A stretch of 64,000 bases of DNA from Patescibacteria group bacterium UBA4787 (GCA_002402995.1 DHGX01000001.1:151073-215072), one strand, 5' to 3'. Numbered from the stretch's first letter, positions 18,249 through 61,571 are shown. Program-made: numbers and translations. The notes: generated by a model from the letters alone, not told the origin.

Positions 18249-18332
18249 GGGCATTAACCCAGAAGTAATGCCCTGTGTTATCCGCGCTCGCTCGGAAATG
18301 AAAATATATTTTCATTTCGCTCGCTTGATAAT
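18249..18332 (-). repeat. dispersed ~75-bp GC-box/palindrome repeat, copy A (inverted relative to copies B–D)
   Basis: The reverse complement contains TATCAAGCGAGCGAAATGAAAATATATTTTCATTTCCGAGCGAGCGCGGATAACACAGGG plus the gggcatta/taatgccc hairpin. Matches are at 36509..36583, 41728..41803 and 61497..61571. Confidence 0.7.
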
Positions 18333-18460
18333 AGACGGGAGTCAAATGGGTGTGGATAATTTTTATTGACGCTTTGCTCTTTTAACCCTACTATTAATAT
18401 ATAATTTATTTCTAATAAAAACGTCCCTTAATAAGGGCGGACTAAAAAGAGGCTTAAAAT

Positions 18461-18826
18461 ATGAAAAAGTATCTTCTCGCGACCCTTTTAACCATCTTTA
18501 TGGTGGTGCCTATCGCGGCTTTGTCGCAGACCAACAATTGGGAAATGGGTTTAACCCAGTTCCAAGGGCAGACCGGGTTGGGTAATCAGGATTTGCCTAC
18601 TACTATTGGCAAGATCGTGAATATCGTCCTAAGTTTCTTGGGTTTAATTGCCGTTGTAATCATCATCATCGGTGGCTTTATGTGGATGACTTCTGGTGGT
18701 AGTGAAGACAAAATTGGTGCCGCTAAGAAATTAATGATCAACGGTGTTATCGGCTTGCTCATTATTGTCGTTTCTTATGCCGCGGCGAACTTTATCGTTT
18801 CGAGATTAAAAACCGTTGCCGGCTAG
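18461..18826 (+). CDS. VirB2/TrbC-like pilin-fold protein (paralog 3)
   Basis: The core GGFMWMTSGGSEDKIGAAKK lies between two hydrophobic helices. A signal peptide is present. Confidence 0.5.
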   Translation: MKKYLLATLLTIFMVVPIAALSQTNNWEMGLTQFQGQTGLGNQDLPTTIGKIVNIVLSFLGLIAVVIIIIGGFMWMTSGGSEDKIGAAKKLMINGVIGLLIIVVSYAAANFIVSRLKTVAG

Positions 18827-18861
18827 TTATCTAATCGAAATTTAAACGCATTTTTGGTTTT

Positions 18862-19320
18862 ATGGTTTATTTAACTAATAAAATCAATTTTTATAACAAA
18901 ACAAGAGCGAATTATCATTTCGCTCTTGTTTTTATGGTTATTGTCTTGACCGGTTTATCTTTAATTATCGCGCCGTCTGTTTTAGCTCAAGAAAATCCAT
19001 TGGATGCTCTACAAAGCACCGCTCAAACCGCTGGTCTTGCTGGCGAAACAGATATAACCGTGATTATCGGTCGTATTATTAATGTTGTTCTAAGTCTATT
19101 GGGTTTAATTGCTGTTATAATCATCATCATCGGTGGCTTTATGTGGATGACTTCTGGTGGAGATGAAACTAAAATTAAAAAAGCCAAAGGCTTAATGCTC
19201 AATGGCATAATTGGCTTGTTGATTATAGTTATTTCTTATACTGCAGCCACGTTTATTATTGGAAGATTGCAAGAAGTCGGCCAAGGCAATGGCGCAGGAA
19301 GCGGTCCCATCACTCCTTAA
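18862..19320 (+). CDS. VirB2/TrbC-like pilin-fold protein (paralog 4); likely true start about 18934
   Basis: The core GGFMWMTSGGDETKIKKAKG is present. The internal Met MVIVLTGLSLIIAPSVLA gives a proper signal peptide. The C-terminal tail is Gly-rich (GQGNGAGSGPITP). Confidence 0.5.
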   Translation: MVYLTNKINFYNKTRANYHFALVFMVIVLTGLSLIIAPSVLAQENPLDALQSTAQTAGLAGETDITVIIGRIINVVLSLLGLIAVIIIIIGGFMWMTSGGDETKIKKAKGLMLNGIIGLLIIVISYTAATFIIGRLQEVGQGNGAGSGPITP

Positions 19321-19355
19321 ATTTAATTATTTTTATTATTTTTTCGAATAGAGAA

Positions 19356-19398
19356 AAAGAGAGGCATTTTTGCCTCTCTTTATATTTATTTTTTTATC
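19356..19398. terminator. bidirectional intrinsic terminator between the convergent pilin gene and the lipoprotein gene
   Basis: A perfect 10-bp stem aaagagaggc/gcctctcttt with loop attttt is flanked by A-run and T-run. Confidence 0.7.
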
Positions 19399-20029
19399 GA
19401 ACGTAGAAATCCCAATCATACCATTTATTGCCAAAAAACACTTCTCGTTTCTCGGCGTTGGCTTTCCACTTGACCGTTTCGGTTTTCATGATTTCCATGT
19501 GGTTGTTGAGATGGTCGATGACAAAGACGTTCTGGCCGACAGGAATAGATAGTTCTGCCATCTGTTTAGGGCAAAGCCTGAGCGGCTTTGCTGTTTTGCG
19601 GCTAAAGTCGGCACCGGTTCTGATCTCGACATAATGGCCGGAAGTGTTGATAATCACGCCTCGAACAAAAGATGTTTTACCAGAAAGCCCATTTTTGAAA
19701 GCTTCGGCTTCAGCTTTTATCATTTCGGCTTCAGCTTTTATCATTTCGGCTTCGGCAGAGGCGATTATTCTCTGATTCTCGAGTTCTGCGTCCAGTTTTT
19801 GTTTCTGCATTTCCCGCATGAGCCGTGTGTTTTCGGCTATCTGTGAAGAATCGAATGCGGTAAGGCCACCGTCACGTTCGTACGAAGACGAAATTGGGTC
19901 TAGGGTGGTTTTCTGGCTTACTTTGATACTGGCGCATCCGGGAACGATAGCGATGAGTACGCCGAGCACCAAGGTCACCAAAATAACCAGAGATGTTTTT
20001 TTGAACGAGAACATGGCTTTTTCCTCCAA
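19394..20029 (-). CDS. hypothetical lipoprotein with internal AEAEMIKAEAE tandem repeat
   Basis: A signal peptide with a lipobox-like VPGC is present. A 21-bp DNA tandem repeat at 19704..19756 encodes the repeated AEAEMIK motif. Confidence 0.4.
   Translation of the reverse strand: MEEKAMFSFKKTSLVILVTLVLGVLIAIVPGCASIKVSQKTTLDPISSSYERDGGLTAFDSSQIAENTRLMREMQKQKLDAELENQRIIASAEAEMIKAEAEMIKAEAEAFKNGLSGKTSFVRGVIINTSGHYVEIRTGADFSRKTAKPLRLCPKQMAELSIPVGQNVFVIDHLNNHMEIMKTETVKWKANAEKREVFFGNKWYDWDFYVR
19704..19756. repeat. 21-bp tandem repeat (about 2.5 copies) inside the lipoprotein gene
   Basis: The unit tcggcttcagcttttatcatt is repeated twice, followed by a partial copy. Confidence 0.6.
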
Positions 20030-20236
20030 AATTTCTGTTTAAATTTTAATGAACAACGCGGTTGATATTCTTTATCCTCTAATTAAATCATAACAAATTT
20101 TTACAGAAAAGTCAATCCCTACAGAAGAAAATAAATTAGTTAAATAGTCAATTGACCGATTCATAGGTATTCATTTTTTCTAAGGATTTGGCTCCAAAAT
20201 TTACAAAAAAATTATTCTCGTTTTAATTTAACGGGA

Positions 20237-21535
20237 TTATCGATAAAATAGAAAAATTAAAAGCAGATAAAAATTGAATAAAGCAGACAGGATAATAGCG
20301 ATTTTCATGCCTGTTTTTAGTTCTTGGTTTTTTTCAAAATAGTTTTTCATTAAAATCCAAAAAAGAAGAGGCAGAAAATCTAAAGCATAGCGATAACCCA
20401 TGGTTACATAACCAGCCCCGCCATAATAGAGGAAAAGGAGTGCGGCAATTATAGATATGTTAATAATTAATATTTTGGAGAGTCGATCTCTATATTTTAA
20501 AAAGAAAAAATATAAAAAATAAGGCGAAGTAACAAAAATACTCATACCATAAGGATTTGGTTTTATGAAAGGCAGTTGGAAGGTGGGCGAACTTCCTTGA
20601 TAGACTAACTGCGGTCCACTAAGAAAAAAATAATAGACATTGGTTGGCAAATGCTCGAGACTTAAAATTCCTTTATAGTCGCGAGCCTTCAGTAACAATG
20701 GACTTAAAACATATTGGTTTTTATAGCCGCCCTCTAGAATATTATCAAAACGCAGATAATTGTAGGTTATTAATAAAAAAGAGGCGATAATTAACGGCAT
20801 TAAAAGAGAAATTAAATTTTTTATTTTTTGTTTTTTTTCTTTTCGAGAAATGAAAATTATTTCCAAAATAAAAAAAATAATATTGAGGCCGGCGGTTAAA
20901 CGAGTGGCAAGCATTAAGGCCAAGAATATACCAATAAGCCAATAACGTTTTTTGCCCAAATATTCATAAACACTCAACAAGCCGAGAAGAACTGCAATAA
21001 CCTGTGCGAAATACCAGCTCCAAGGAATAAAAATTACTCCGATTAACATGGTGGCAAAACAAAATGCGAAAGCCCAATACCATGAATCGTTTTTTGTGTA
21101 ATTCAGGCGTTGAGCGATTTTAAAACAGATAAACGCAATAAATAAAACCAAGATAATCTGTAAAAATCCTTGATAAAAAAATAAATTAAAGATATTTGAC
21201 AAAAAAACAAAAGGCAAAAGAACAACGGCCGGAAAAGGACCGAGCGGCCAATAATAATGACCGTGATAGAGAGTAGTGTCATCGCTCCAGGAAAATCCCG
21301 GCATTTCCAAAAAATATAATCTACCGTGCAAAAATGATTTAGCCAAAAAAGAAAAATGCTGTTCGCCTTTAATGGTTATATTGGTGGCTATACTGATAGC
21401 CAAAAAGATTATAAACAAAATAATAATTAAATTGCGCGAAACAGAATATTTTGTCCAAAGATTTTTAATTTTTGAAGTTATCAAGGACATCGCGATGGAA
21501 CTTAAGGCGGAAAATAGTTTTAAAAAATTCAACAA
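20237..21535 (-). CDS. polytopic membrane protein, possible GT-C-like glycosyltransferase
   Basis: It has more than 10 predicted TM helices and lies in a cluster with a GT2 Ppm-like gene and a GT-C-like gene. It overlaps the upstream gene by 71 nt as annotated, so the true start is probably further downstream. Confidence 0.3.
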   Translation of the reverse strand: MLNFLKLFSALSSIAMSLITSKIKNLWTKYSVSRNLIIILFIIFLAISIATNITIKGEQHFSFLAKSFLHGRLYFLEMPGFSWSDDTTLYHGHYYWPLGPFPAVVLLPFVFLSNIFNLFFYQGFLQIILVLFIAFICFKIAQRLNYTKNDSWYWAFAFCFATMLIGVIFIPWSWYFAQVIAVLLGLLSVYEYLGKKRYWLIGIFLALMLATRLTAGLNIIFFILEIIFISRKEKKQKIKNLISLLMPLIIASFLLITYNYLRFDNILEGGYKNQYVLSPLLLKARDYKGILSLEHLPTNVYYFFLSGPQLVYQGSSPTFQLPFIKPNPYGMSIFVTSPYFLYFFFLKYRDRLSKILIINISIIAALLFLYYGGAGYVTMGYRYALDFLPLLFWILMKNYFEKNQELKTGMKIAIILSALFNFYLLLIFLFYR

Positions 21536-22190
21536 TTTCTTTTTTGCCGAGTTTTGATTGCCCGGCCCGCCGATCCGTAAAAACGACCGGCATCTCTTTA
21601 ATTTTAAGATTGTTTTTTTCCGCTAAATAAATTATTTCTTCAAGCCAAGCGTAGCCGTTGCTTTCAAGATTTTGAAAATTTATTTTTTGCAGGGCTTCTT
21701 TTCTAAAACAGCGGAAGCCGGCTGTTAGATCCTTGGTTTTTATATTAAGCGCTAAACGCGCGAAAGACATAGCTCCCCAAGAACAAAATTTACGCCACAA
21801 ATTCCAGTTGATAATTTGTCCGCCTTTGATTTTCCTTGAACCGATTACTATATCATACCCTTTTAGGCACGCGGTTATTAAGCGAGGTATATCTTTGGGA
21901 TTATGCGATAAATCAGCATCCATTTGAATAATCAGATCAGCGTTATTCTGGATTGCCAGGCTAAATCCTTGTTTATACGCGCTGCCAATGCCTTGTTTGG
22001 CGGACCGATGAATAACCGAAAGATTATAATTTTCAACTAATTTTTCGGCCAAATCGCCGGTTCCGTCAGGAGAATTATCATCAACTATAATGACCCGCGA
22101 ATTTTCAATTTTCAGCGCGAAAATTTCTTTGACCAAATTTTCCAAATTTTCTTTTTCGTTGTAAGTAGGAATAACTATGTATATTTTCAT
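21465..22190 (-). CDS. GT2 polyprenol-phosphate glycosyltransferase (Dpm1/Ppm1-like)
   Basis: MKIYIVIPTYNEKENL...VIIVDDNSPDGTGDLAEKL...QMDADLSHNP is the classic soluble Dpm1-type GT2 (DxD). Confidence 0.75.
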   Translation of the reverse strand: MKIYIVIPTYNEKENLENLVKEIFALKIENSRVIIVDDNSPDGTGDLAEKLVENYNLSVIHRSAKQGIGSAYKQGFSLAIQNNADLIIQMDADLSHNPKDIPRLITACLKGYDIVIGSRKIKGGQIINWNLWRKFCSWGAMSFARLALNIKTKDLTAGFRCFRKEALQKINFQNLESNGYAWLEEIIYLAEKNNLKIKEMPVVFTDRRAGQSKLGKKEIVEFFKTIFRLKFHRDVLDNFKN

Positions 22191-22213
22191 TTTTGCAAAT
22201 TGATTAATTTTTT

Positions 22214-23881
22214 CTACCTTAGATTATAAACAGCCGCTTCTTCGTCTTCGTATGTTTTAAAGAAAAAAGGAGAATGGTCAAGCTTCAATTTGAGTGGCTT
22301 ATAGGAAGAGCCAAACTCTCTTTTTTCCAGCAAAAACCAGAAAGAGCGGAAGTCGTTTTTTACAATTTGCGATATTTCTTGAGCACCGATTTTATTCTGG
22401 CTGATTTTTTGCCATTTCTCAAATAAATCTTTACTAAAGGCGTACATAAAAGTTTGGTCCAGGCCGTTAATATAATAATGTTCTGTGTCAAAATAAAATA
22501 AAAATGGAAAAGTATCCCAGCGTTGCTGGTAAATAATTTCTTTGGCCGGAATATTATTCTTTATCCACCAAGTTGTTTTTTGCAAATGTGTATAGGGGAT
22601 ACTTTCATTTAAACTTTTTTGGTATTCATTTTTTATTTGCAAGAAAGATTGGTCAAAAAAGCTTTTTATGCCAAAACCGATAATGCCGATTAAAATAAGA
22701 CTTGTGCCAAAAAGAGCCGCGGATGATTTGCCATGGAATAAGTTTTTAATTTTATTTTTAATCTCAGGCCAATTAGCTACTCGGAATAAATTATCTAAAA
22801 CCAAAGCCGAAAAAATAAGAGCCAGGGGCGCGAAGTATTCAATATTCCGCCGGGCTTTTAGGGTGTAAAGCAAGAAAAAGAAAGACAATAAAGCCAAAAA
22901 CCAAGTTTTTTTGCTTTGTTTTTTGGCATTGGACGCGAAATAGGCCACAGCCACCATCCACAATAAAATAATAGGGAAATTAGTAACAAGAAAAAATGTC
23001 GGATCAGAAGGATACCATTCCGCACCCACACCGATTTTGGCGTAATAATTGATAATGGCGATGTGGGTTAATTCAAACCAGTGGAAATAATAAGTTTTTG
23101 GGAAATAAGGATTTAAGGTGAGCCCCAAAATAATGCCCGAAAGAACAGATGCTAAAATAATTATATTAGGCCGCGAAAATATATTTTTTATCAAAAATCG
23201 TGCGTTGATTTTTTCTCGGTTTTGCAAGATTGAATAAAATAATTTTCCCAAGATATAAAAAATAACAGCTAATATTAGTAGAGGAAAGGCTCCGTATAGC
23301 CAAACATAAATAAAGCTGATGATTGCTAATGGCCGCCATTTTCCCCGGCTTATAAAATAAATAGCCAAAAATAAAACAATTATAGAAACAGCCGGCGCTC
23401 GCGTTAAGGAAATCCGCATTAAAAAACCATTGCTTAAAAAAAGGATTAAAATATATAAAAAGGGTTTCCGAACCTTCCATTTTTTAAGTAACCAATAAAC
23501 AGTTAAAAAAACCAAACTAGCCAAAAGGATCGCCGCCAATTTGGTTTTAATGAGCGGTTCAATTTCCAAACCAAAAGAATCCAAATTGGTGGGTGAAGGA
23601 ATTAACAAGAAGGGGATTAAAATAATATGATAACCAAAATGTTGATTGACAAAAAAATTATTATAAGTCGTATATTGCGTCCACGGGAAATTTTGAATAA
23701 TGCCCTGGTCTTTTATCATCATAGCCATTTTGGTGTGGAAAAAACCGTCCGGACACAACAAAGATGGCGTGTTCATAATCCACGTCAAAGCCAAAAAGAG
23801 AAATAAAAAAACCAGCCAATATTCTAAATGGTTGATTTCTACGATTTTTTTTATTTTTAATATTATGTTTTTAATAGACAT
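22214..23881 (-). CDS. GT-C-fold membrane glycosyltransferase (ArnT/PMT-like)
   Basis: It is a 555-aa polytopic protein. Its N-terminal loop DGFFHTKMAMMIKDQG resembles the DE/DD catalytic loop of GT39/GT83 enzymes. Confidence 0.45.
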   Translation of the reverse strand: MSIKNIILKIKKIVEINHLEYWLVFLFLFLALTWIMNTPSLLCPDGFFHTKMAMMIKDQGIIQNFPWTQYTTYNNFFVNQHFGYHIILIPFLLIPSPTNLDSFGLEIEPLIKTKLAAILLASLVFLTVYWLLKKWKVRKPFLYILILFLSNGFLMRISLTRAPAVSIIVLFLAIYFISRGKWRPLAIISFIYVWLYGAFPLLILAVIFYILGKLFYSILQNREKINARFLIKNIFSRPNIIILASVLSGIILGLTLNPYFPKTYYFHWFELTHIAIINYYAKIGVGAEWYPSDPTFFLVTNFPIILLWMVAVAYFASNAKKQSKKTWFLALLSFFFLLYTLKARRNIEYFAPLALIFSALVLDNLFRVANWPEIKNKIKNLFHGKSSAALFGTSLILIGIIGFGIKSFFDQSFLQIKNEYQKSLNESIPYTHLQKTTWWIKNNIPAKEIIYQQRWDTFPFLFYFDTEHYYINGLDQTFMYAFSKDLFEKWQKISQNKIGAQEISQIVKNDFRSFWFLLEKREFGSSYKPLKLKLDHSPFFFKTYEDEEAAVYNLR

Positions 23882-23996
23882 AGTATTTGTATTTTAGGGT
23901 TTTTTCTTGAAAAAGTCTAATCCCTCCTTGCCTTGTTTTTATTTTTATTTTCAGCTACAATTTAATTGTTAACAAGATAATCTATAGAGGATTTTT

Positions 23997-24731
23997 ATGT
24001 CAGGACATTCTAAGTGGGCCAAATTAAAGCACACAAAAGGCGCGATCGATGCCAAAAAAAGCGCTATGTTTACTAAAATCGCGCATGTGATTACTATCGC
24101 GGCTCGCGAAGGTGGGGGCGATCCGGAAGCCAACCCTAAATTGAGAATGACCATGGAACGAGCGCGGATAATTAATATGCCTAAGGATAATATTGAACGT
24201 GCCATTAAACGCGGCGCCGGCGGACCAGATAGCGCCAGTTTAGAAGAAATTACTTATGAGGTTATCGGTCCTGGTGGTTCAGTTGTTTTGGTTGAAGTTC
24301 TAACTGACAACAAGAATCGTACTATTTCTAATTTGCGCCGTGTTTTGAATCATTATGGTGGGACATTGGCTACAACGAACGCGGTTTTATGGATGTTTGA
24401 TAAAAAAGGAATTATTGAAATTGAAAATTATCAAAGTCAAATTAATAACTTCGACGAATTTCAATTAGAAGCAATTGATGCAGGAGTGGAAGACGTAGAA
24501 AACATAGAAACAGACTTGGTTTTATACGTAAAACCCGAGAATATGGAAGCAGTTAAAAGTTTCTTGTTTAGTAAAAATATTAAAATTACCAATGCAGACG
24601 TTGAATGGCGAGCCAAAAATTTAATTGAAGCCAATTCTACGGCCAAAGGGCAGTTAGAATCATTGTGTGCTGAATTGGAAGAAGATTCTGATGTTACAGA
24701 TTATTATACTAATGTCGAAGGGTTAGAATAA
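23997..24731 (+). CDS. yebC: YebC/PmpR-family transcriptional regulatory protein
   Basis: MSGHSKWAKLKHTKGAIDAKK is the invariant family N-terminus. Length is 244 aa. Confidence 0.85.
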   Translation: MSGHSKWAKLKHTKGAIDAKKSAMFTKIAHVITIAAREGGGDPEANPKLRMTMERARIINMPKDNIERAIKRGAGGPDSASLEEITYEVIGPGGSVVLVEVLTDNKNRTISNLRRVLNHYGGTLATTNAVLWMFDKKGIIEIENYQSQINNFDEFQLEAIDAGVEDVENIETDLVLYVKPENMEAVKSFLFSKNIKITNADVEWRAKNLIEANSTAKGQLESLCAELEEDSDVTDYYTNVEGLE

Positions 24732-24755
24732 AAGTTTGAATAATTTTAATCATAT

Positions 24756-26096: not shown

Positions 26097-26128
26097 TCAA
26101 GATTCGCGGATAAAGGTGGATAAAGCAT

Positions 26129-33430: not shown

Positions 33431-33534
33431 TTAAAAAATATGTTATTATTAATAAGCGAGTATAAACAATGAAGAGTGAATGTTGCGCACAAACAACGCT
33501 TTTAAAATTTTAATAATTTTTAATTTATACTTTT

Positions 33535-35774: not shown

Positions 35775-36470
35775 ATGTTTAAGTCTGATACAGCCGCCAA
35801 TCTTTTAAAAAAAACTCGAGAAGCCAAAAATTTAACAATAAAAGAAGCATCTCTCCAGACAAAAATTAGCGAAAAATATCTAGATTTGATAGAAAATGGG
35901 GAATATGAAAAATTGCCGAGTTTAACGCACTCCTGTGGTTTTTTAAAAAATTATGCTATTTATTTGGGGCTTAATCCAGACGATATAAATTTAAAATTTA
36001 AAGGAGAAGTTTCTTTTTTAGAGCAAGATAAAAAATTATTTCCAGAAAAAACTATTAACCCCGGACAAAGGTTGTTGAATAGGTTCAGTTTACCTACGTG
36101 GAAATTTGACATGCGGCGTTTTTGGGTTTTTTTCTTCGGCCTTTTGATCTTGTCGTATTTGGGTTGGGGTTTGAAAAAAATGATTTTTCCTCCGACATTG
36201 ATTGTTGACGCCCCAGCCAATAATTTGAAAGTTTACGAACCAGCCACCATCGTTAAGGGTCGCGTTGCCGCCGAAACTATAGTAATGATTAATAGCGACG
36301 TGATTGAAAATATAGCCAGAGGGGAATTCGAAGAAAAAATTTCGTTGATGCCCGGTCTTAATTCTGTTCGAATCACGGCTAAGAAGAAAAATAATCAAGT
36401 ATCCGCGATTGAAAGGATGGTTTTTTACCAAATTCCGCAGAGCAATTCTACCACTACCTCGGCTCTTTAA
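35775..36470 (+). CDS. RodZ-like protein (N-terminal HTH, single TM, C-terminal domain)
   Basis: An XRE-type HTH (LTIKEASLQTKISEKYLDLIENGEY) is followed by a TM helix at about residue 120. This is the RodZ architecture. Confidence 0.45.
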   Translation: MFKSDTAANLLKKTREAKNLTIKEASLQTKISEKYLDLIENGEYEKLPSLTHSCGFLKNYAIYLGLNPDDINLKFKGEVSFLEQDKKLFPEKTINPGQRLLNRFSLPTWKFDMRRFWVFFFGLLILSYLGWGLKKMIFPPTLIVDAPANNLKVYEPATIVKGRVAAETIVMINSDVIENIARGEFEEKISLMPGLNSVRITAKKKNNQVSAIERMVFYQIPQSNSTTTSAL

Positions 36471-36508
36471 TCGCCGTTGACTTTATTTAACTAAATAATT
36501 ATAGTTTA

Positions 36509-36583
36509 TTATCAAGCGAACGAGTGAAATGGAAATAAAATTTCCATTTCCGAGTAAGCGCGGATAACACAGGGTTAATACCC
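36509..36583 (+). repeat. dispersed ~75-bp GC-box/palindrome repeat, copy B
   Basis: tatcaagcgaacgagtgaaatggaaataaaatttccatttccgagtaagcgcggataacacagggttaataccc. It lies between the RodZ-like gene and recA. Confidence 0.7.
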
Positions 36584-36648
36584 TTTATTGGTTCGCTTTA
36601 AATAGCTTGTATTTGTAATTATAAATTTTAATTTTTAATTTAAAAAAT

Positions 36649-37668
36649 ATGTCAAAATCACAAGAAGATAATGATAAAATAACCGCTAATCGTTCGCAAG
36701 CTGCCGAAGAAGCAATTAATCAGATTAAAAGCCGTTTCGGCGAAGGATCGATTATGCGTTTGGGTGAAGCACAAAAAATTAACGTGGAAACTATTTCTAC
36801 GGGTTGTTTGTCTTTAGATCTGGCCTTGGGTGGCGGAGTGCCGCGAGGCAGGGTTATTGAAATTTTCGGTCCCGAAGCTTCGGGAAAAACTACCCTAGCT
36901 TTACATATCGTGTCCGAGGTCCAGAAAAAAGGCGGCGTAGCGGCCTTTGTGGATGCGGAGCATGCCTTAGATCCGGAATATGCCAAGAAGATCGGCGTAA
37001 AAGTTGACGATCTTTTAATTTCGCAGCCCGATACCGGTGAACAAGCTTTGGAAATAGTTGAGACTTTGGTTCGTTCTAATGGTGTTGATGTAATTGTGAT
37101 TGATTCAGTAGCGGCTTTGACCCCCAAAGCGGAAATCGAAGGAGAGATGGGAGATCAACATATGGGTCTTCAGGCTCGTCTTATGAGCCAGGCCTTAAGG
37201 AAATTGACCGGCATTGTTGGTAAAACTAAAACAACGGTTATCTTTATTAATCAGATTCGTTTGAAAATCGGCGTTTTCTTCGGCAACCCGGAGACCACTA
37301 CTGGCGGTATGGCTTTAAAATTTTATGCTTCAGTGAGAATTGAGGTGCGGCGCTCAGAACAAATTAAAAAAGGCGACGAGATAATGGGCAACATGGTTAA
37401 AGTCAAGATCGTTAAGAATAAAGTTGCTCCGCCGTTTAAAACTTGCACTTTTGATATTATGTATAATGAAGGCATTTCCGTGTCCGGCGATCTTTTAGAC
37501 GCAGGAGTTAACCGCGAGATTATAAAAAAATCGGGGAATACTTATGCTTTTGGCGAAACCAAACTTGGTGTCGGTCGGGACGCGGCTAAAGATTTTATTA
37601 AAACCAATCCTAAAATTCAAACAGAAATCAGAAAAGCTGTTTTAGAGAAAGTTAGTAAAACGGTATAG
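36649..37668 (+). CDS. recA: recombinase RecA
   Basis: [12 protein letters not shown] (Walker A), VIDSVAAL and the L1/L2 loop regions are canonical RecA. Confidence 0.95.
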
Positions 37669-37674: not shown

Positions 37675-37690
37675 AGTCCGCCAGCTGGCG
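37675..37690. repeat. GC-rich perfect palindrome TCCGCCAGCTGGCGGA (copy 2 of 2), directly after recA
   Basis: It is identical to 17055..17070. It forms a terminator-like hairpin but no T-tract follows. Confidence 0.7.
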
Positions 37691-37726
37691 GATAGAATTT
37701 AGGATTTATAAATTAGAATTTTTATT

Positions 37727-39789: not shown

Positions 39790-40629
39790 ATGAATAAATT
39801 TGCGATTATCGGCACGGGCTTTATAATGCCCCGTCACGCGGAAGCGATTGATTTTATTAAGGGAAAAATTTTAGAAATCATTAATACTTCCGAAGGAGTG
39901 AATAATTGGAAAAAAATAATAAAAAACACGAAAGCAGATTATATTATTATTTTAACCCCAAACGACCTTCATTCTCCTATAAGTCTGGCGGCGCTTAAGC
40001 GCGGCAAGACGGTCTTATGCGAAAAGCCCCTCTGTCTTAACACCAAAGACGTTAAAATATTGGCTGAGTATAAAAATATTTTTACGGTTGTTCAGTTGAG
40101 GCATCATCTTTTAACGAAGAAATTAAAAAAAGAAATCAATTCTAGGAAATTTTATCAAATAGAAATGGATATCGCGGTACACCGAGATCCAAAATATTAT
40201 AAGTGTTGGAAGGGCCAAGAGAAGAGGTCGGGTGGAATTTTATTTAACCTTGGAATACATTATTTTGATATTTTAATCCATCTTTTCGGTGAACCGGAAG
40301 AGATATTAAATTCGAAATATAATAAAAAAGAAGCCTCAGGTATTTTAAAGGGCAAGAATTATGTTTGTCGTTGGCGTTTAACTACCGACGAACCTCATAA
40401 GACCCAACGTAGAGTTTTTAAGATCAATGGAGTCGGTTATAATTTTTCTTCGCAAGATAATTTATCGCACGAGAACCTGCATCGTTTTATTTATCAGGAT
40501 TTAATTCATAAAAAAGGAACAACTCCGCAAGAAGCCTTGAAGTCAATTGGCTTGATCGAAAATATTTATTATCAAGCCAACAAGAAAAAATATTCTAAAA
40601 ACAAAGATAGGGTTAAACGAACAAAATAA
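39790..40629 (+). CDS. Gfo/Idh/MocA-family sugar oxidoreductase
   Basis: FAIIGTGFIMPRHAEAI, the Rossmann fold and LCEKPL are family motifs. It is coupled to the aminotransferase by a TAATG overlap. Confidence 0.65.
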   Translation: MNKFAIIGTGFIMPRHAEAIDFIKGKILEIINTSEGVNNWKKIIKNTKADYIIILTPNDLHSPISLAALKRGKTVLCEKPLCLNTKDVKILAEYKNIFTVVQLRHHLLTKKLKKEINSRKFYQIEMDIAVHRDPKYYKCWKGQEKRSGGILFNLGIHYFDILIHLFGEPEEILNSKYNKKEASGILKGKNYVCRWRLTTDEPHKTQRRVFKINGVGYNFSSQDNLSHENLHRFIYQDLIHKKGTTPQEALKSIGLIENIYYQANKKKYSKNKDRVKRTK

Positions 40630-41816
40630 TGGAATTTTTAGATTTGAATAGACAGTATAGAATAATTAAGAAAGAGGTTAATCAAGCTATTCAGAAGGTT
40701 TTAGATAGCGGTCATTTTATTTTAGGCCCGGAAGTAGAAGAGTTAGAAGGGCAAATTGCTAAATATTGCGGTGTTAAATATGGGGTTGGTGTTAATTCCG
40801 GAACAGACGCCTTGTTATTATCCTTGATGGCTTTAGGTATAGGCAAGGGAGACGAGGTAATTACTACGCCATTTACTTTTATGGCTACGGCAGAAACCAT
40901 AGTTATGTGCGGCGCTCGGCCTATTTTTGTGGACATTGATTCAGCAACTTTTAATATTGATGTTGATAAAATTGAAGAAGTAATCACTAAAAAGACAAAA
41001 GCAATTATTCCTGTTCATCTCTATGGCCAACCAGCCGAAATGGACAAAATGATAAGAATCGCACGAAAATACAAATTGAGAATAATTGAAGATTGTGCTC
41101 AGGCTATCGGCGCTAAATATAAAAATAAAAAAGTCGGTTCAATGGGTGATCTGGGCTGTTTTTCCTTTTTCCCTTCTAAAAATTTAGGTGCTTGTGGTGA
41201 TGGCGGGATGGTGGCGACAAACAATAAAAAATTAGCCGAAAAAATCAGAATGTTGCGCGCCCATGGTTCAAGAAAAAAATATTATCACGAAATTATTGGT
41301 ACTAATAGTCGACTGAGCACCATTCAGGCAGCTATTCTATTGGTCAAATTAAAATATTTAGACGAATGGACTAAGGTTCGACAAAAAATAGCCAGGCATT
41401 ATAGTCGCTCGTTTGGTAAATTTATTAATCTAAGGGCTCCTTTTGTTGCGTCTAATCGCACCCATGTTTTTCATCAATACACCATAAGAGTAAATAAACA
41501 AAAAAGGGACAAGCTGATAGATTATTTAAAACAACAGGACATTCCGACTGCGATTTATTATCTCTTGCCGCTCCACTTACAACCATCTATGAAATTTTTG
41601 GGTTACAAAAAAGGCGATTTTCCCGTAGCCGAAAAGGCGGCCCGAGAAGTTTTGTCTTTACCGATCTATCCAGAATTAAATATTAATAAAGAACAAAATA
41701 GGATTATCAATACCATTAATAAGTTTATTATCAAGCAAGCGAGAGAAATGAAAAACAAAGTTTTTCATTTCCGAGCGGGCGCAGACAACACAGGGTTAAC
41801 ACCATTTATTAATTAG
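40629..41816 (+). CDS. DegT/DnrJ/EryC1/StrS-family PLP-dependent sugar aminotransferase
   Basis: GDEVITTPFTFMATAETIVMCGARPIFVDID and SFFPSKNLGACGDGG are present, the latter in the PLP-Lys region. The last 25 codons are contributed by repeat copy C. Confidence 0.8.
   Translation: MEFLDLNRQYRIIKKEVNQAIQKVLDSGHFILGPEVEELEGQIAKYCGVKYGVGVNSGTDALLLSLMALGIGKGDEVITTPFTFMATAETIVMCGARPIFVDIDSATFNIDVDKIEEVITKKTKAIIPVHLYGQPAEMDKMIRIARKYKLRIIEDCAQAIGAKYKNKKVGSMGDLGCFSFFPSKNLGACGDGGMVATNNKKLAEKIRMLRAHGSRKKYYHEIIGTNSRLSTIQAAILLVKLKYLDEWTKVRQKIARHYSRSFGKFINLRAPFVASNRTHVFHQYTIRVNKQKRDKLIDYLKQQDIPTAIYYLLPLHLQPSMKFLGYKKGDFPVAEKAAREVLSLPIYPELNINKEQNRIINTINKFIIKQAREMKNKVFHFRAGADNTGLTPFIN
41728..41803 (+). repeat. 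dispersed ~75-bp GC-box/palindrome repeat, copy C (the most diverged)
   Basis: tatcaagcaagcgagagaaatgaaaaacaaagtttttcatttccgagcgggcgcagacaacacagggttaacacc. It overlaps the 3' end of the aminotransferase CDS. Confidence 0.6.
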
Positions 41817-50916: not shown

Positions 50917-50927
50917 TTTAATTAAAA

Positions 50928-51968: not shown

Positions 51969-51994
51969 TTTTTAAAAATCTAAAAGAGGAGATA

Positions 51995-52747: not shown

Positions 52748-52751
52748 AAAA

Positions 52752-54188: not shown

Positions 54189-54216
54189 TATTTAGTTCAT
54201 AACAAAGTAAAATATT

Positions 54217-55305: not shown

Positions 55306-55360
55306 ATTTAAAAAATATAGAATAGCGTCGGACATATCATAGCGCAAAATAAACAGGTTT

Positions 55361-55990
55361 ATGGATAAATTTAATCTAAAAAATTTAAATACCAATAGGC
55401 GCTGGGATTATCATACACAAGAATACCACAGTGGCAATCCAATAACCCAATTCCTTTTTAATTTTTTTTATAAAAAACTAGAAGAAGCCCTAATGGTGCT
55501 TAAGAGTGGCGACAAAATACTTGAAGTGGGTTGTGGAGCAGGAGAGTCTTCTTTGAGAATAAAGCGTATGCTTAAGGATCAATATTTTGAGGTATCAGAT
55601 ATAGACGAGTACTATATTAACAAATTAAAAGATAAAAATTTTTCTTTACCGGTATCTCAAGAGTCTGTTTATGATTTAAAAAGGGGCGATAACGAATTCG
55701 ACTGCATTTTATTTTTAGAAGTTTTGGAGCATCTCAAAAATCCAGAGTGCGCACTCCAAGAATTATTTAGAGTCTCCAGAAAATATGTTATTCTCTCTGT
55801 TCCCAACGAACCACTTTGGCGATTTTTAAATTTATTAAGAGGAAAATTTATCACTTCCCTGGGTAACACGCCCGCTCACGTTAATCACTGGTCGGTAAGC
55901 GAAATAAGCGATCTTGTTTCTCGGCACGGTAAGATTATTAAATTATATAAACCCATTCCGTGGATTATTATTATTGCAGAAAAGGAATAA
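55361..55990 (+). CDS. class I SAM-dependent methyltransferase
   Basis: Motif I ILEVGCGAGESS is present, and ILFLEVLEHL follows. Confidence 0.55.
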   Translation: MDKFNLKNLNTNRRWDYHTQEYHSGNPITQFLFNFFYKKLEEALMVLKSGDKILEVGCGAGESSLRIKRMLKDQYFEVSDIDEYYINKLKDKNFSLPVSQESVYDLKRGDNEFDCILFLEVLEHLKNPECALQELFRVSRKYVILSVPNEPLWRFLNLLRGKFITSLGNTPAHVNHWSVSEISDLVSRHGKIIKLYKPIPWIIIIAEKE

Positions 55991-56113
55991 AATAGATTCA
56001 TTTTAAGGGTTTTTACTCAATGAATAATTAAAAAATTTTAATAACAGTAAGATAGAAGACGTAGACTTAATCAACAAACCATATATAATCTATAAGATAT
56101 TAAAAAGATAATT

Positions 56114-57100
56114 ATGTTTAAAAATAATAAAATTTCAGTAGTGATACCAGCCTACAACGAAGAAAAGTCAATTGCTTCGGTTATTTTAACCGTGCCGAGC
56201 TTCGTTGATCATGTCCTTGTAGTAAATGATGGGTCAACCGACCAAACAACTGAAATCGCCAAAGAGAGGGGGGCTATATTAATAAATCATGTAATCAACA
56301 AGGGGGTGGGAGCGGCCTTTCGTAGTGGCGTTAGAAAATCTTTGGAATTAAATTCAGATATCATGGTGAATATGGATGCCGACGGGCAATTTAATTCAGA
56401 GGACATTACTAAGCTTATTGAACCGATAATCGAAAAACGGGCTGATTTTGTCACTGCTTCAAGATTCAAGAATCCCGATTTTTATCCGCAAATGTCAAGA
56501 ATCAAATTTATAGGCAATAGGTTGATGTCCTGGTTAATTAGTAATTTGGTTGGTCAAAAATATTATGACGTTTCCTGCGGATTTAGGGCTTATTCAAAAG
56601 AGGCGCTATTGAGACTTAATTTATTCGGTGAATTTACTTATACCCAAGAAACATTTTTAGATTTGGCTTTTAAAGGGATGTCTATTGTTGAGGTCCCGGT
56701 TTTGGTCAGAGGAACAAGAGAATATGGCCAATCTAAAGTAGCTTCTAATTTATTTAATTATACATATCAGACCTTAAAAATTATATTGAGAACCCTAAGG
56801 GATTATAGAATTTTTAAAGTTTTTTCTTTTATCTCGTCATTTTTTCTTTTGATTGGTGTAGTTTTTGGATCATTTTCTCTTATTTATTATTTACGTTTCA
56901 ACTTTTTTTCTCCGTATAAATGGGTTGCCTTTGCCGCTGGTTTTTCCATCTTATTCTCGCTTTTAACCATAATGGCCGGCTTTATAATTGATATATTTTC
57001 CCGAATTAGATATAACCAAGAGGAGACTCTCTATCAAATTAAAAAAATAATTTTTTTAAAAAATAATCAAAGAGTAGATACCCCCGATTATAAATTATAA
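56114..57100 (+). CDS. GT2 polyprenol-phosphate glycosyltransferase with C-terminal TM helices (paralog of 49184..50131)
   Basis: ISVVIPAYNEEKSI...VVNDGSTDQT and ...NMDADGQ are present. Two C-terminal TM helices follow. Confidence 0.7.
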   Translation: MFKNNKISVVIPAYNEEKSIASVILTVPSFVDHVLVVNDGSTDQTTEIAKERGAILINHVINKGVGAAFRSGVRKSLELNSDIMVNMDADGQFNSEDITKLIEPIIEKRADFVTASRFKNPDFYPQMSRIKFIGNRLMSWLISNLVGQKYYDVSCGFRAYSKEALLRLNLFGEFTYTQETFLDLAFKGMSIVEVPVLVRGTREYGQSKVASNLFNYTYQTLKIILRTLRDYRIFKVFSFISSFFLLIGVVFGSFSLIYYLRFNFFSPYKWVAFAAGFSILFSLLTIMAGFIIDIFSRIRYNQEETLYQIKKIIFLKNNQRVDTPDYKL

Positions 57101-57101
57101 G

Positions 57102-59399
57102 ATGATCCACGCCATTAAGATAAAACCACAAAGAATATCAGAAATTTTAGTATTTTTTTTGTTGATTGGTTTATATATTTATAATATAACTAAATATTTT
57201 TGGACATTGCCGACACCAAGCGATCCGCTTGAGTATTTAGGTTCGGCAGCCTGGGGGACTGCCTATGGATTCTGGCCCTTTCTCGCCCGCTTAGCTTTAG
57301 CCGTTAACCTAAGAATTTTCGTTCTATTGTTCTCCAAGGCCTATTTTGCGGGAATGTTCTATATCGGTTTTATCAACACCGCCATCTTAATTGTGGCCAT
57401 GCTTTGGGCTTTTAGAAAGTCAGGATTCTGGGCAGCTTTATTCGTCGGTATTTTCATGAACTCTTCTTATCTGATGCTCGGCTGGGCTACCTATATTTAT
57501 CCGGATCAAACCGTCGCCCTTTATTCGTTGTTGGCGTTTATTTGTTTCTTTTCGGAGTTTAAAATTTATCGTTTCATTAACGGGACTTTTCTGGCAGGTT
57601 TTTTTACTGGACTCGCCATACTTTCTAAGGCTACGGGTTTTGGTATATTGCTGTTTTTTGTTATATATCTTATTTATAAAAAAGAATGGAGGAAAATAAA
57701 ACAATTTGCTATTGGTCTGTTTATTGGACTGACCATTGTCGTGTTCTTGTTCTGTCTTTTGTATAATTACCAGTCTTTTTTAGATGCTTTTGTGGAATTT
57801 TTTTATGGTTCGCTAGGGCGTAATTTGGCAAAAATTTATACTAATTTAGGTGCAGGATATTTTCACGAGATCATTTCATCAATAAAATACTTTCCATTTG
57901 TCGCACTATTTATTTTAATCGGCGCTTATAAAAATCAGAAAACCAAGAATTTATTATTCTTGGCTTGGTTCAATATTTTTTTGGTTTATCTTTTAAGGTC
58001 TTCGGCACCTTCTATCCCAACCTATATTTATACTGCTTATATTTTTACTGTTTTAGGAGTATCTATCTATTTAGCCGATGTTTTTGTGTCGAAACAGAGC
58101 AATCGACCAATAGTCAATTTGTCAATTTTGCGTAAATACAGTTTTGTTTTATTTTTTATAATCGTGCTTATTTTAATGGTCGTTGGTCTGCGATTGGGCA
58201 TTAAATATCATTCCGTAGAAAATTATGACTATAGCTATAACTATTTGAAGCCGCTTGATATTTACGAAACAACTAGTTTCCCATACCCTAATATTATAAA
58301 AATATTATATACTTTTATACCCATTCTGCTTTTAGTTTGTTTATTGGGGATTGAGATTCTGAGGCGAAAGATCTTTATTGTTTTATTTATTATTTTGACT
58401 GCTTTCGGCTCCTCTTTTTTCAATGGCGGCCTTGCTTATCAAAAGGCGAAGTATGACAGAGAACGGGCAGATTTTTTCTATAGAACCGCCCCAATTTTAA
58501 ATTTAGTAAAAGACAAAACCTTTAGTGTTTACGTCGAAGCCTGGAACCAGCAATCTTATTCCAATCGGCTCTTGTGGGTCTATCGTTTATTTTTTGACAA
58601 TAAATATCAAAGAGTTTTCAAAGATCAATACAAAGCGCAAAAATTAAACGCCGACGAGATCGAAAGTAGTATAATTTATATAGACAAAGAAAACGATATT
58701 TTGTCAAAAGCCAAGAATGGACGAATCTTGACTGATCGTCCGGATATAGTCCATAAATATTTTCCTTCCGCCATAGAGGTACAGAGGTTGACAGAATTTA
58801 ATAATTTAAGAGATTTGGTCGTGCTTGATATTTCTTCACAGTATTCTATAAAGAAGACGGTTAAATTTTTATTCCAAGAAGATTTTTCAAAATGGCCGAA
58901 CGAGACTAAGAAATTTAGTTCCTCTGAAATAGAGAAAATTTTGCCCCCGCTTAAAATATTGGGTTTAAGGGGGAATCATTTCAAATTTTTGCGGCAAAAT
59001 TCAGGAGAAGATAATTATGTCAGGATTAATTTGAATAAAATAAATAACAGAGAAAAACCAGAAATTAATCTTGGTTATATTGTTAGCCTCCTAGAAATTT
59101 TAGAAAAAGACAAAAACCAACCATTATTTGTCACCCTTGAGGTGGTGGCACGAACTTCTGCTAATCAAAAGAATCAACCCCCCTTTATTTTTATTCAAGA
59201 CAAGGTTAATGAGGACTGGGATTTGACTAAGATTAATATGCCGGGAGATAGATGGGGAGAATACGTTGCAACTAAAAAATTAAGAGACGGCGCTAAAGAT
59301 TTTTTGGCTGGTATAGGATTTTTGCCAAGTTCCGTAGAGAGCTATTTAGACGTTAAAAGCATAAAAATATCCGTTTGGTCTGTGGCTGACAACAAATAA
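57102..59399 (+). CDS. large GT-C-fold membrane glycosyltransferase (ArnT/PMT-like) with a C-terminal extracytoplasmic domain of about 350 aa
   Basis: It has about 12 TM helices followed by a soluble domain. It is translationally coupled to the GT2 gene (TAAgATG). Confidence 0.4.
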   Translation: MIHAIKIKPQRISEILVFFLLIGLYIYNITKYFWTLPTPSDPLEYLGSAAWGTAYGFWPFLARLALAVNLRIFVLLFSKAYFAGMFYIGFINTAILIVAMLWAFRKSGFWAALFVGIFMNSSYLMLGWATYIYPDQTVALYSLLAFICFFSEFKIYRFINGTFLAGFFTGLAILSKATGFGILLFFVIYLIYKKEWRKIKQFAIGLFIGLTIVVFLFCLLYNYQSFLDAFVEFFYGSLGRNLAKIYTNLGAGYFHEIISSIKYFPFVALFILIGAYKNQKTKNLLFLAWFNIFLVYLLRSSAPSIPTYIYTAYIFTVLGVSIYLADVFVSKQSNRPIVNLSILRKYSFVLFFIIVLILMVVGLRLGIKYHSVENYDYSYNYLKPLDIYETTSFPYPNIIKILYTFIPILLLVCLLGIEILRRKIFIVLFIILTAFGSSFFNGGLAYQKAKYDRERADFFYRTAPILNLVKDKTFSVYVEAWNQQSYSNRLLWVYRLFFDNKYQRVFKDQYKAQKLNADEIESSIIYIDKENDILSKAKNGRILTDRPDIVHKYFPSAIEVQRLTEFNNLRDLVVLDISSQYSIKKTVKFLFQEDFSKWPNETKKFSSSEIEKILPPLKILGLRGNHFKFLRQNSGEDNYVRINLNKINNREKPEINLGYIVSLLEILEKDKNQPLFVTLEVVARTSANQKNQPPFIFIQDKVNEDWDLTKINMPGDRWGEYVATKKLRDGAKDFLAGIGFLPSSVESYLDVKSIKISVWSVADNK

Positions 59400-59463
59400 T
59401 TTAATTTAGTCAAACTCAGGAAATTTCTATTCATAATTTTGCGCGATTATCATAATATAAAAT

Positions 59464-60585
59464 ATGTCCAAAATTATTTCTTTTGTTTTTAATGATTTTA
59501 CTAACGACCTCAGAGTTTTAAAAGAAAACATTTCTTTAAAAAATGCTGGTTTTAAGATGACAGTAGTTGCGACTCTTGAATCGGGTTTAAAAAAGCTGGA
59601 ATTTGTCAAAGATTTAGAGGTGCATAGAATAAAAGTCAATTATATCAAAGCTTTGCCGATTCAACTATTTTTTTACTGGATAAAATGCATTGTAAAATAC
59701 AGAAAAGAGGCCATATTTCATTGCAACGATCTTTACGCCTTACCTATAGGCGTATTTATTAAAATATTTTTTAATAAAAAAGCTAAAGTGGTTTATGATT
59801 GTCATGAGTATGAAACCGAGGCTCATATTTATGATGGCAGGAAGTGGCTGAAAATAGCTGCTAAAATCTCCGAAAGATTGTTGATAAGATATTGCGACGA
59901 AGTTATTACTGTCAGTGAGTCGATTGCCAACGAATATCAAAGATTATATAAAATAAAAAAACCAACCTTAGTTCTGAATTGTCCGCGTTTTCAGAAATAC
60001 GAAAAAAAAGATTTATTTCGGCAGAAATTTGGAATAAAACCAGAGACAAAAATAGTTTTATTCCAAGGAGAATATAGAAAGGGAAGAGGGCTAGAAATTA
60101 TGATAGAGGCCTTCAAGAAATTAAATGATAAAAATTTGGCTTTAGTTTTTCTTGGTTATGGGGCTCTCACTAATTTTGTAAAACAAGAAACAATGTCGTC
60201 TTCTAATATATATGTGCACGAAACGGTTAGCCTCGACGTCTACATGGACTATATTTGTTCGGCCGATTTCGGAATTCATATTATGGAGAATACTTGTCTG
60301 AATCATTATTACGCTCTTCCGAACAAACTTTTTGAATATATTATGGCCGGACTGCCGGTGATTGTTTCTAATTTGTACGAAATGAAAAGATTTGTTGAAA
60401 AATATAACGTCGGCATAGTTTTGCATGAAAATAATGTTGCCTCGCTTCTGGAAGTTTTAAATAAAATTAACAGTCTTGATTTAACGATTGTTCGAGAGAA
60501 CACCCAAAAAGTCGCCCAAGTTTATAATTGGGGAAATCAAGAAATAACCCTGATTAATTTATATAAAAATTTAGTTCAAAAATAA
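59464..60585 (+). CDS. GT4 (group 1) glycosyltransferase
   Basis: The C-terminus EYIMAGLPVIVSNLYEMKRFVEKYNVGIV is the GT4 E-x7-E/acceptor-site region. Confidence 0.55.
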   Translation: MSKIISFVFNDFTNDLRVLKENISLKNAGFKMTVVATLESGLKKLEFVKDLEVHRIKVNYIKALPIQLFFYWIKCIVKYRKEAIFHCNDLYALPIGVFIKIFFNKKAKVVYDCHEYETEAHIYDGRKWLKIAAKISERLLIRYCDEVITVSESIANEYQRLYKIKKPTLVLNCPRFQKYEKKDLFRQKFGIKPETKIVLFQGEYRKGRGLEIMIEAFKKLNDKNLALVFLGYGALTNFVKQETMSSSNIYVHETVSLDVYMDYICSADFGIHIMENTCLNHYYALPNKLFEYIMAGLPVIVSNLYEMKRFVEKYNVGIVLHENNVASLLEVLNKINSLDLTIVRENTQKVAQVYNWGNQEITLINLYKNLVQK

Positions 60586-60623
60586 ATAATATCGGACAAA
60601 GAAGAGATTGTACGATCAATATA

Positions 60624-61526
60624 ATGACTGACGAAGTTTTGTTTAAAAATTACATCATACCCGAAATCCCGCGAGGGAAAAATTTTTTGATTTGGCTAAG
60701 CCACGACGTAGACAGGGTTCAAAAGACAATATTTCATTCTATCTATTATTTTTTTAAAGAAAGGAAATTCAGCCACTTGCAAGACATTTTTTCTAAAAAT
60801 AATCCTTATTGGAATTTCGATCGTATAATGGCGCTGGAAGGGCAATATAATGCCAAATCAACCTTTTTCTTTTTAAACGAAACAATGAAGGCTGATATTC
60901 TTCAACCTAAGTCGTATATTTTAGCGAAAGGAAGATATGATATTACCAGCCCGAAAATTAAACAGATAATCAAAGCCATTGATAAAAATGGCTGGGAAGT
61001 GGGCTTGCATGGTTCATATCAGTCTTTTTTAGATAAAGAGCTTCTAACGAGAGAAAAACGAACACTTGAAGAAGTGATTGGCCACGAAATAGGCGGCATT
61101 AGGCAGCATTATTGGAATAATGTTATTCCCAAAACCTGGGCGATTCAAAGATCGATCGGTTTAAAATATGACGCAACGTTCGCGACAAAAGATGATATTG
61201 GTTTTCGCGAAAATATTTATTATCCGTTTAGGCCATTTGATGACGATTTTTTGGTGATACCAACGGTTATCATGGAATATTATTTGTTTAATAAAGCTGA
61301 CGGAAATGTTGATGTGGCCAAGAAGATGATTAACGATCTTATTGATTTTTGTAAAAACAAGAGGGCCGTATTTTCGGTTTTATGGCATCCACATTTTATA
61401 AATCCTAAAGAATTTCCCGATCTTTATAATCTTTACGAATATTTATTAAAAAGAGCCAGCGAGGAAGGTGGCTATTTTATCACTCCAAAAAATTTATTAT
61501 CAAGCGAACGAGTGAAATGGAAATAA
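60624..61526 (+). CDS. ArnD-like polysaccharide deacetylase/deformylase family protein (paralog of 50128..50916)
   Basis: The protein has NFLIWLSHDVDRVQ...AKSTFFFLNE. Its last 9 codons and stop lie inside repeat copy D. Confidence 0.5.
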   Translation: MTDEVLFKNYIIPEIPRGKNFLIWLSHDVDRVQKTIFHSIYYFFKERKFSHLQDIFSKNNPYWNFDRIMALEGQYNAKSTFFFLNETMKADILQPKSYILAKGRYDITSPKIKQIIKAIDKNGWEVGLHGSYQSFLDKELLTREKRTLEEVIGHEIGGIRQHYWNNVIPKTWAIQRSIGLKYDATFATKDDIGFRENIYYPFRPFDDDFLVIPTVIMEYYLFNKADGNVDVAKKMINDLIDFCKNKRAVFSVLWHPHFINPKEFPDLYNLYEYLLKRASEEGGYFITPKNLLSSERVKWK

Positions 61527-61571
61527 AATTTCCATTTCCGAGCAAGCGCGGATAACACAGGGTTAATACCC
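61497..61571 (+). repeat. dispersed ~75-bp GC-box/palindrome repeat, copy D
   Basis: tatcaagcgaacgagtgaaatggaaataaaatttccatttccgagcaagcgcggataacacagggttaatacccc. It is nearly identical to copy B. Confidence 0.7.

Follow-up and report, generated by a model that had tools for sequence, protein, structure and literature searches.

The DNA analysed here is a 64,000-nucleotide stretch from Patescibacteria group bacterium UBA4787 (GCA_002402995.1, DHGX01000001.1:151073-215072), which is called the window throughout. Its gene content, including T4SS_pilin and DUF5658 domains, places the host in the Patescibacteria, or candidate phyla radiation (CPR), and the nearest named homologues of an aminotransferase that it encodes belong to Patescibacteria, Gribaldobacteria and Paceibacterota. 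Scattered between and within the genes are copies of a short repeat, a putative mobile element, which is the subject of this work. After a flanking WTTAT, the unit reads TATCAAGCGAGCGAG, a variable hairpin, CCGAGCGAGCGC-N-GATAACACAGGG, a short GGG..CCC hairpin and a terminal TTTAT. In the alignment of the five window copies the variable hairpin is GAAATGRAAA..TTTYCATTTC. Three helices are distinguished: P1 (TTATC with GATAA), P2 (the variable hairpin) and P3 (GGG with CCC). The insert boundaries of the window copies were taken from the sequence and from comparisons of filled and empty sites, and the scores are those of a covariance model built from 29 copies. The copies, possible relics and one empty target site are the following:

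36510..36588, + strand: element copy of 79 nt, used as exemplar, in the spacer between a helix-turn-helix-domain gene (35775-36470) and recA (36649-37668); 107.5 bits
61498..61576, + strand: element copy of 79 nt, covering the last codons of the open reading frame (ORF) 60624-61526; 100.2 bits
41729..41809, + strand: element copy of 81 nt, or 27 codons, in the DegT-family aminotransferase gene 40629-41816; 94.8 bits
18244..18330, - strand: element copy of 87 nt with a longer P3 hairpin, between + strand pilin genes; 77.2 bits
11909..11988, + strand: fifth, diverged copy, between the divergent genes 11483-11938 (-) and 12132-12749 (+); 70 bits
About 6905..6985, - strand: possible decayed copy with a recognisable arm, hairpin, arm and TTTAT layout; 17.1 bits, E 0.13, not significant alone
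33440..33470, + strand: possible left-end relic (TTATTATTAATAAGCGAG); the same intergenic spot in locus L056 holds a truncated copy (4526-4617, 34.9 bits)
1640..1649, + strand: empty target site TTTAT/AACTC, junction 1644/1645; filled in the relatives L094 and L008

A preliminary description of this DNA had listed four copies, each at the end of a gene. All four are present where it placed them, but the count was too low: there is a fifth copy at 11909-11988, together with the two possible relics. Nor does every copy mark a gene end, since the fifth lies between divergent genes, where no gene 3' end is found. When up to three mismatches were allowed, the GC box GCGCGGATAACACAGGG occurred at five sites in the window, compared with 0.10 expected from shuffled sequence, and none of 100 shuffles reached five. 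The copies at 36510 and 61498 differ at only 2 of 79 positions (97.5% identical) and their flanks are unrelated; the element has spread recently within the genome of the window. The fifth copy represents a subfamily with GCC/GGC in P1 and GCGCTGGCAACACAGGG. In the exemplar, the flanking TTTAT lies at 36505-36509 and the terminal TTTAT at 36584-36588. P1 pairs 36509-36513 with 36563-36567 and is followed by the arms AAGCGAACGAG and CCGAGTAAGCGC, P2 pairs 36526-36536 with 36540-36550, and P3 joins GGG at 36572-36574 to CCC at 36581-36583. The unit as defined here is about 79-87 bp long, lengths of 74-86 nt were measured in the wider comparison of copies, and there is no coding capacity. Its length differences are not multiples of three, and the length is divisible by three in 29 of 61 copies, a weak enrichment.

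The most direct evidence on the nature of the repeat came from sites that are filled in one genome and empty in a relative. At the first of them (site A), the window is empty and reads gataaaTTTAT/AACTCC, while locus L094, about 91% identical to window 1642-2524, reads gataaaTTTAT(TATCGAGCG...CCCTCTAT)AACTTT; L008 is likewise filled. Searching with joined flanks revealed two more sites. At site 1, L079 and L009 carry the element and L016 lacks it; at site 2, L016 carries it, whereas L079, the flanks of which are 98% identical, L047 and L009 are all empty. In all three filled/empty pairs, the difference is exactly TATC...TTTAT, positioned 3' of TTAT, and no scar is left. Site 2 appears to be a recent gain, given that the copy there bears the TGAC/GTCA signature specific to the genome of L016. 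Site 1 appears to be a precise loss in L016, since a copy with the same P3 is retained by a close relative and by a more distant one.

The target is narrowly defined. Among 61 distinct copies, each position of the left flank W-T-T-A-T is conserved in 58-61 and each position of the terminal TTTAT in 57-61, and in 60 the element is followed by T or A. The flanks on both sides are rich in AT, and TA hardly varies. The filled/empty pairs leave 3, 4 and 5 ambiguous bases, and in the 61 copies changes in the left flank do not go along with changes in the terminal TTTAT of the element. Because the variants of the left flank mismatch those of the element end, any target duplication would be limited to 2-4 bp (TA, TAT or TTAT). 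Head-to-tail arrays were present in L015, L039, L074, L089 and L090, joined by CCCTTTAT/TATCAAGCG, so that the terminal TTTAT of one copy is the flank of the next. One internally deleted copy has apparently collapsed between two GCGAGCGA arms, and truncated and decayed copies also occur among the loci. The exact filled and empty sites, the near-identical copies at unrelated loci, the genome-specific subfamilies, the tandem arrays and the in-frame inserts that have no counterpart in homologues bear out the earlier suggestion of a small mobile element, akin to repetitive extragenic palindromic (REP) sequences or to the miniature transposable elements with inverted repeats known as MITEs, rather than a simple terminator. 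We regard it as very probable that these repeats represent a gene-less and non-autonomous DNA element of about 80 bp that is, or recently was, mobile.

The surroundings of the empty site A have features of their own. Exactly at an intergenic place where L094 and L008 carry an element copy, the window holds a unique GC-rich, foldable insert of about 125-150 nt (2160-2320, z = -2.4); no second occurrence was seen in the fetched loci, and Rfam gave no match for it. Window 1478-1640 contains a tRNA-like 3' portion (...GGGGTTCGATTCTGCCTGGGTCCACCA) that ARAGORN does not call, then TTTATTATCAA, which resembles a piece of the element's left end, and the truncated tail of a zinc-ribbon gene, of which L094 has a full-length version. 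This arrangement suggests a rearrangement adjoining tRNA-Ala. The tRNA-Ala(TGC) gene at 1398-1471 is divergent from a tRNA-Ile gene at 855-931 (-), the anticodon of which, TAT, is unusual in bacteria. A permissive Rfam search of window 1460-2340 gave only tRNAs and noise.

We then considered how the copies relate to genes. The preliminary description held that two copies supply the last residues and the stop codon of their host genes. This is correct for the copy at 61498, which shifts the frame of ORF 60624-61526, replaces its C-terminal residues and provides the TAA at 61524-61526, within the P2 loop. In the aminotransferase, the copy does give 27 residues (IKQAREMKNKVFHFRAGADNTGLTPFI), but through an 81-nt insertion that keeps the frame and lies two codons ahead of the native TAG at 41814-41816, which is retained. 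The resulting protein has 395 aa, compared with mostly 363-385 aa in the homologues shown, and seven aligned homologues end at the start of the element. The concern that the copies might be assembly artefacts was dispelled: the 395-aa aminotransferase, including its element-encoded residues, is recorded by NCBI, JGI, Logan and ENA and occurs on six contigs, and the recA-proximal copy is kept at the orthologous position in L056, a relative about 91% identical that comes from another assembly. At 18244-18330, gene 17876-18247 has its TAA stop within the terminal ATAAA of the element (TTTAT read on the other strand), and this copy is one of eight inverted copies in which the TAA of the convergent gene falls in that motif. 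Since the TTAT target is ATAA on the other strand, the stop codon is re-created and insertion at it would be neutral; this, along with how short the spacers between genes are in these genomes, helps to explain why copies tend to sit at gene ends. The inverted copy lies between the second and third of four consecutive T4SS_pilin (PF18895) genes (17111-19320). A perfect DnaA-box-like 9-mer, TTATCCACA, is found at about 18353-18361 (-), 22 nt upstream of it; chance alone would give about 0.5 such matches in the window, and cumulative GC skew has no turning point.

In-frame residence is also seen in Elusimicrobia. In pdxA (L010 412-1389 (-), L001 and L073), three proteins carry 26 in-frame residues, NKGYKPCVISARSEMKTKFHFTHSLD, which are absent from the nine closest element-free homologues. 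An ABC_tran_2 ATPase (L025 3147-4868) and a TMEM260-like/TPR protein (L003 1629-3845) carry the element in frame as well. The PdxA of L010 has a further, unique insert of 16 residues beside the element. A breakpoint in L001, L010 and L073 was rejected, as the alignments run through the element. Repeats of a diversity-generating retroelement, a candidate raised by the gene 3' ends, were dismissed too: copies do not differ specifically at adenines, and the products of the host genes are ordinary enzymes. The position at gene 3' ends within a glycosyltransferase/methyltransferase cluster, and the imperfect palindrome with a variable centre and conserved ends, would also suit a site-specific recombination site, such as an integron attC or Xer-type site, marking cassette boundaries in a polysaccharide gene cluster. 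We consider this extremely improbable. What moves is the 80-bp element alone, not a gene plus its site; copies are also found among housekeeping genes and inside genes; no RYYYAAC/GTTRRRY boxes were seen on inspection, and no integrase is among the annotated genes of the window.

The family extends well beyond the window, as the preliminary description had left to be checked. A degenerate 27-mer from the conserved 3' half, scanned against 185,579 species representatives, gave 25 loci in species-representative genomes, all of them true copies except L018, a chance match. Ten named metagenome-assembled genomes (MAGs) were involved, by label about six Patescibacteria, three Elusimicrobia and one 'Gammaproteobacteria', and at least nine MAGs had true copies. 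The Elusimicrobia assignment goes beyond binning alone, because every named homologue of PdxA on one such contig belongs to Elusimicrobia or Endomicrobiales. The same 27-mer pattern gave 72 metagenome loci, mostly from groundwater. With the covariance model, we counted 94 copies at E <= 1e-8 in 76 sources, several loci having two or three; these copies are not all distinct, some metagenome loci being the same contigs as genome loci. In the sampled loci the density is about one copy per 5-13 kb. Copies within a genome share subfamily signatures: GCGCGGAT in the window, GCGCTGAT in Elusimicrobia and TGAC/GTCA in JBAZEY. No phage or plasmid carrier was found in IMG/VR viral contigs (three pattern scans), GenBank phages or PLSDB plasmids (BLAST). 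Clustering of 624 ORFs from the loci showed no family enriched near copies, and the representatives tested were housekeeping genes. A composite transposon was considered for L045 and rejected: what lies between its two inverted copies (RNase H, RecJ and alanine racemase) is no cargo.

Some loci carry elaborated forms. Variants with a conserved 5' extension (ccgaaacccgagcagtgccaaattttcacttcgggg) lie at contig ends, within the first ~100 nt, in L026, L030, L034, L045 and L064, and in L027, L036, L068, L071 and L097 the P3 loop of variant copies is enlarged by a GC-rich insert (CCGCAGCTTGCTGCGG...) about 70 nt long. Both suggest repeats of a nested or composite kind at which assemblies break. The window also has a second short repeat, a perfect palindrome with the sequence (A)TCCGCCAGCTGGCGGA(T), at 17056-17069, just after gene 15673-17043, and at 37678-37691, 10 nt past the recA stop. 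It also occurs in the CPR loci L015, L022, L043, L055 and L082, lying inside the element's P2 in L015 and abutting P3 in L043.

We next examined the fold. Both strands of the window copies fold better than shuffled sequence (z -1.9 to -5.0). Helices were derived from RNAalifold and from pair counts on aligned copies, and the covariation proposed as a check in the preliminary description was found in all three. P1 (TTATC/GATAA) changes to TTGAC/GTCAA, TTTTC/GAAAA and TTGCC/GGCAA; P2 varies in length and sequence and is GC-rich at times; and P3 (GGG/CCC) changes to GAG/CTC and AAAAGG/CCTTTT. Helix cells are paired in 96% of cases, compared with 38-54% when the 3' partners are slid, two-sided changes affect 18 of 23 pairs, and none of 500 shuffles reached the observed values. 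Because all three helices covary, the folding of one strand is under selection. Read on the strand given here, the aligned copies have 77 G.T cells and 45 A.C cells, moderate evidence that this is the strand that would fold. The predicted fold is a conserved rod, formed by P1 and P2 joined by the arms, plus the short subterminal hairpin P3. The arms AAGCGAGCGAG and CCGAGCGAGCGC are non-complementary and may stack as G-C pairs broken by two CGAG/CGAG tandem G.A motifs. The arm CCGAGCGAGCGC(AG), for example at window 36551-36562, resembles the (GAGC)n Rep-binding element of adeno-associated virus terminal repeats, to which a HUH endonuclease binds, and serves as a lead only. Terminal inverted repeats of about 15 bp or more are absent: when the consensus was compared by eye, the left end, TATCAAGCGAGCG, and the reverse-complemented right end, ATAAAGGGTATTAAC, agreed at no more than 6 of the 8 terminal bases. 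P1/P2 do form an inverted repeat, but an internal one that leaves out the P3 module. The right terminus appears to be kept as a covarying structure and not as a sequence.

Such a well-supported fold, with its G.U excess on one strand, could also belong to a functional RNA that benefits the host, either a small RNA gene or a cis-acting stability or terminator hairpin in 5' or 3' untranslated regions, as the preliminary description had offered among its candidate roles. P3 followed by TTTAT is weakly terminator-like and passes a lax terminator scan for one copy (5 pairs), though about half of the copies are antisense to the upstream gene. Near recA, a promoter-like site (TTGACT, 17 nt, TATAGT; 10 of 12 matches) at 36477-36505 (+) ends 5 nt before the copy, which is also kept in the relative; given this site, the copy may be transcribed as a recA leader. 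Nevertheless, several lines of evidence make these roles unneeded and poorly fitting. In Rfam, only two tRNAs pass the gathering thresholds in the whole window, and the best permissive match on a copy reaches 18 bits against a threshold of 40. Orientation is about 13 against 13 relative to neighbouring genes, and relative to local GC skew it is positive in 34 and negative in 40 cases on the element's strand; this either-way orientation speaks against a cis-acting RNA specific to one strand. Upstream there is no conserved promoter, copies are patchy across genomes and are gained and lost between close relatives, some are inside coding sequence, some decay, and ordinary, good intrinsic terminators already lie just upstream of others. 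Altogether, we consider a host-serving RNA quite improbable. A DnaA or LexA box, suggested by GATAAC/TTATC and by the position upstream of recA, was rejected, as most copies occur in unrelated contexts.

The filled and empty sites show that the element moves, and we propose that the enzyme responsible is encoded elsewhere in the genome. Acting in trans, this enzyme would handle the element in the form of a folded single strand and would be of the HUH/Y1 'peel-and-paste' type or something like it. We put this single-strand HUH-like route forward tentatively, as a possible mechanism, because terminal inverted repeats are absent, the right-end hairpin covaries, the left-flank motif is strict and is repeated at the element end, and loss appears to be scarless. 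An 80-bp double-stranded circle seems physically implausible, and excision appears to be precise. Tandem arrays would be expected, because the element's own end mimics its target.

Several observations weigh against this proposal. The copies have no transposase of any kind beside them; the neighbours tested were housekeeping genes. For the Y1 transposase, phmmer searches with IS608 TnpA (verified against PDB 2a6m) and IS200 TnpA (an unverified sequence) found no match in six-frame translations of the window and all loci, a sample of about 0.8 Mb. Among the loci there are no left and right element halves separated by a gene, as in an autonomous form. IS608-type elements are biased towards one replication strand, and our copies are biased neither with respect to GC skew (34/40) nor to gene direction (~13/13). 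The hairpins differ from each other and P1 begins with the first base of the left end, unlike the end layout of IS608. Finally, the flank and the element end share TTAT, which is compatible with a target duplication of up to 4 bp, and with loss by microhomology-mediated deletion following such a short duplication.

This last point leads to the main mechanistic alternative, a cut-and-paste MITE, that is, double-stranded DNA moved by a DDE transposase that duplicates TA, TAT or TTAT. All three filled/empty pairs fit a 2-4 bp duplication, the flanks are AT-rich with TA nearly invariant, orientation is random, and arrays sharing one TTAT would arise in the same way. In contrast, the missing terminal inverted repeats (the 6 of 8 bases noted above) do not fit, the compensated variation of the right-end hairpin (GGG/CCC, GAG/CTC, AAAAGG/CCTTTT) is unexpected for a transposase that binds duplex DNA, and no DDE gene was seen near the copies. 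We therefore judge a DDE-moved MITE to be rather unlikely. Returning to the single-strand route, a bolder version would have a HUH-type or novel mobilising enzyme read the twin (GAGC)n-like arms, and would take the near-identity of the element between Patescibacteria and groundwater Elusimicrobia as a sign of direct DNA traffic, possibly between episymbiont and host. We consider this version unlikely, a speculation; if true, the element could trace such partnerships.

These results bear on several questions. Mobile DNA in CPR/Patescibacteria, the genomes of which are tiny and streamlined, appears to be little described, and the element seems to make up a visible share of CPR intergenic DNA. 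By altering protein ends and inserting peptides into conserved enzymes, it behaves like the Rickettsia palindromic elements (RPEs), here in two unrelated phyla. For annotation, it accounts for odd C-terminal extensions and seemingly 'repeated' gene ends; for evolution, it provides a cross-phylum marker of horizontal exchange in aquifers. As regards mechanism, the compact substrate, the strict TTAT flank and the covarying three-helix fold mean that the mobilising enzyme can be sought. Literature searches for CPR repeats and for the sequence itself found no published description of the element or of a similar CPR repeat.

Among known systems, IS200/IS605 elements that have a 5'-TTTAT flanking motif (e.g. 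ISGst2), excise without a scar and have gene-less derivatives, the PATEs, are documented (PMC10055086). Like PATEs, our element is very small and gene-less, has no terminal inverted repeats, has (T)TTAT directly 5' of its left end and a similar motif as its last bases, bears subterminal hairpins and is apparently lost without a scar. It differs from them in that neither a Y1 transposase nor TnpB was found in the ~0.8 Mb around its copies, and in its lack of strand bias relative to GC skew, its dissimilar hairpins and its left helix starting from the first base; the comparison is one of features, not of end sequences. RPEs are short palindromic repeats, often in frame inside conserved protein genes and also intergenic (PMC10969869). 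The element likewise adds a peptide in frame to conserved genes (PdxA, ABC_tran_2, TMEM260-like, aminotransferase), a likeness of behaviour only. RPEs are about 100-150 bp long and confined to Rickettsia, whereas the element is about 80 bp, occurs in Patescibacteria and Elusimicrobia, and has a defined TTAT flank and clear filled/empty sites. With the classical MITEs (Correia/NEMIS, RUP, BOX, SPRITE, ERIC) it shares a small, gene-less, multicopy, mostly intergenic and foldable nature, AT-rich targets and, at times, terminator-like hairpins (SPRITE) or fusion to ORFs. Those families are, however, defined by terminal inverted repeats and a DDE-made target duplication, and the element has no inverted termini. 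REP sequences and their mosaic combinations (bacterial interspersed mosaic elements, BIMEs) with RAYT are also hairpin repeats at gene ends, clustered or tandem in places, and are thought to be moved by a HUH Y1 enzyme acting on folded single strands; no RAYT-type gene was seen near our copies. REPs are single hairpins of 20-40 nt with a conserved 5' GTAG and are usually species-specific, whereas the element has about 80 nt, three helices, no GTAG and a cross-phylum distribution. Taken together, these comparisons point to a previously undescribed family of small mobile hairpin elements, distinguished by its conservation across phyla, by the strictness of its TTAT flank and by its presence in frame within conserved genes.

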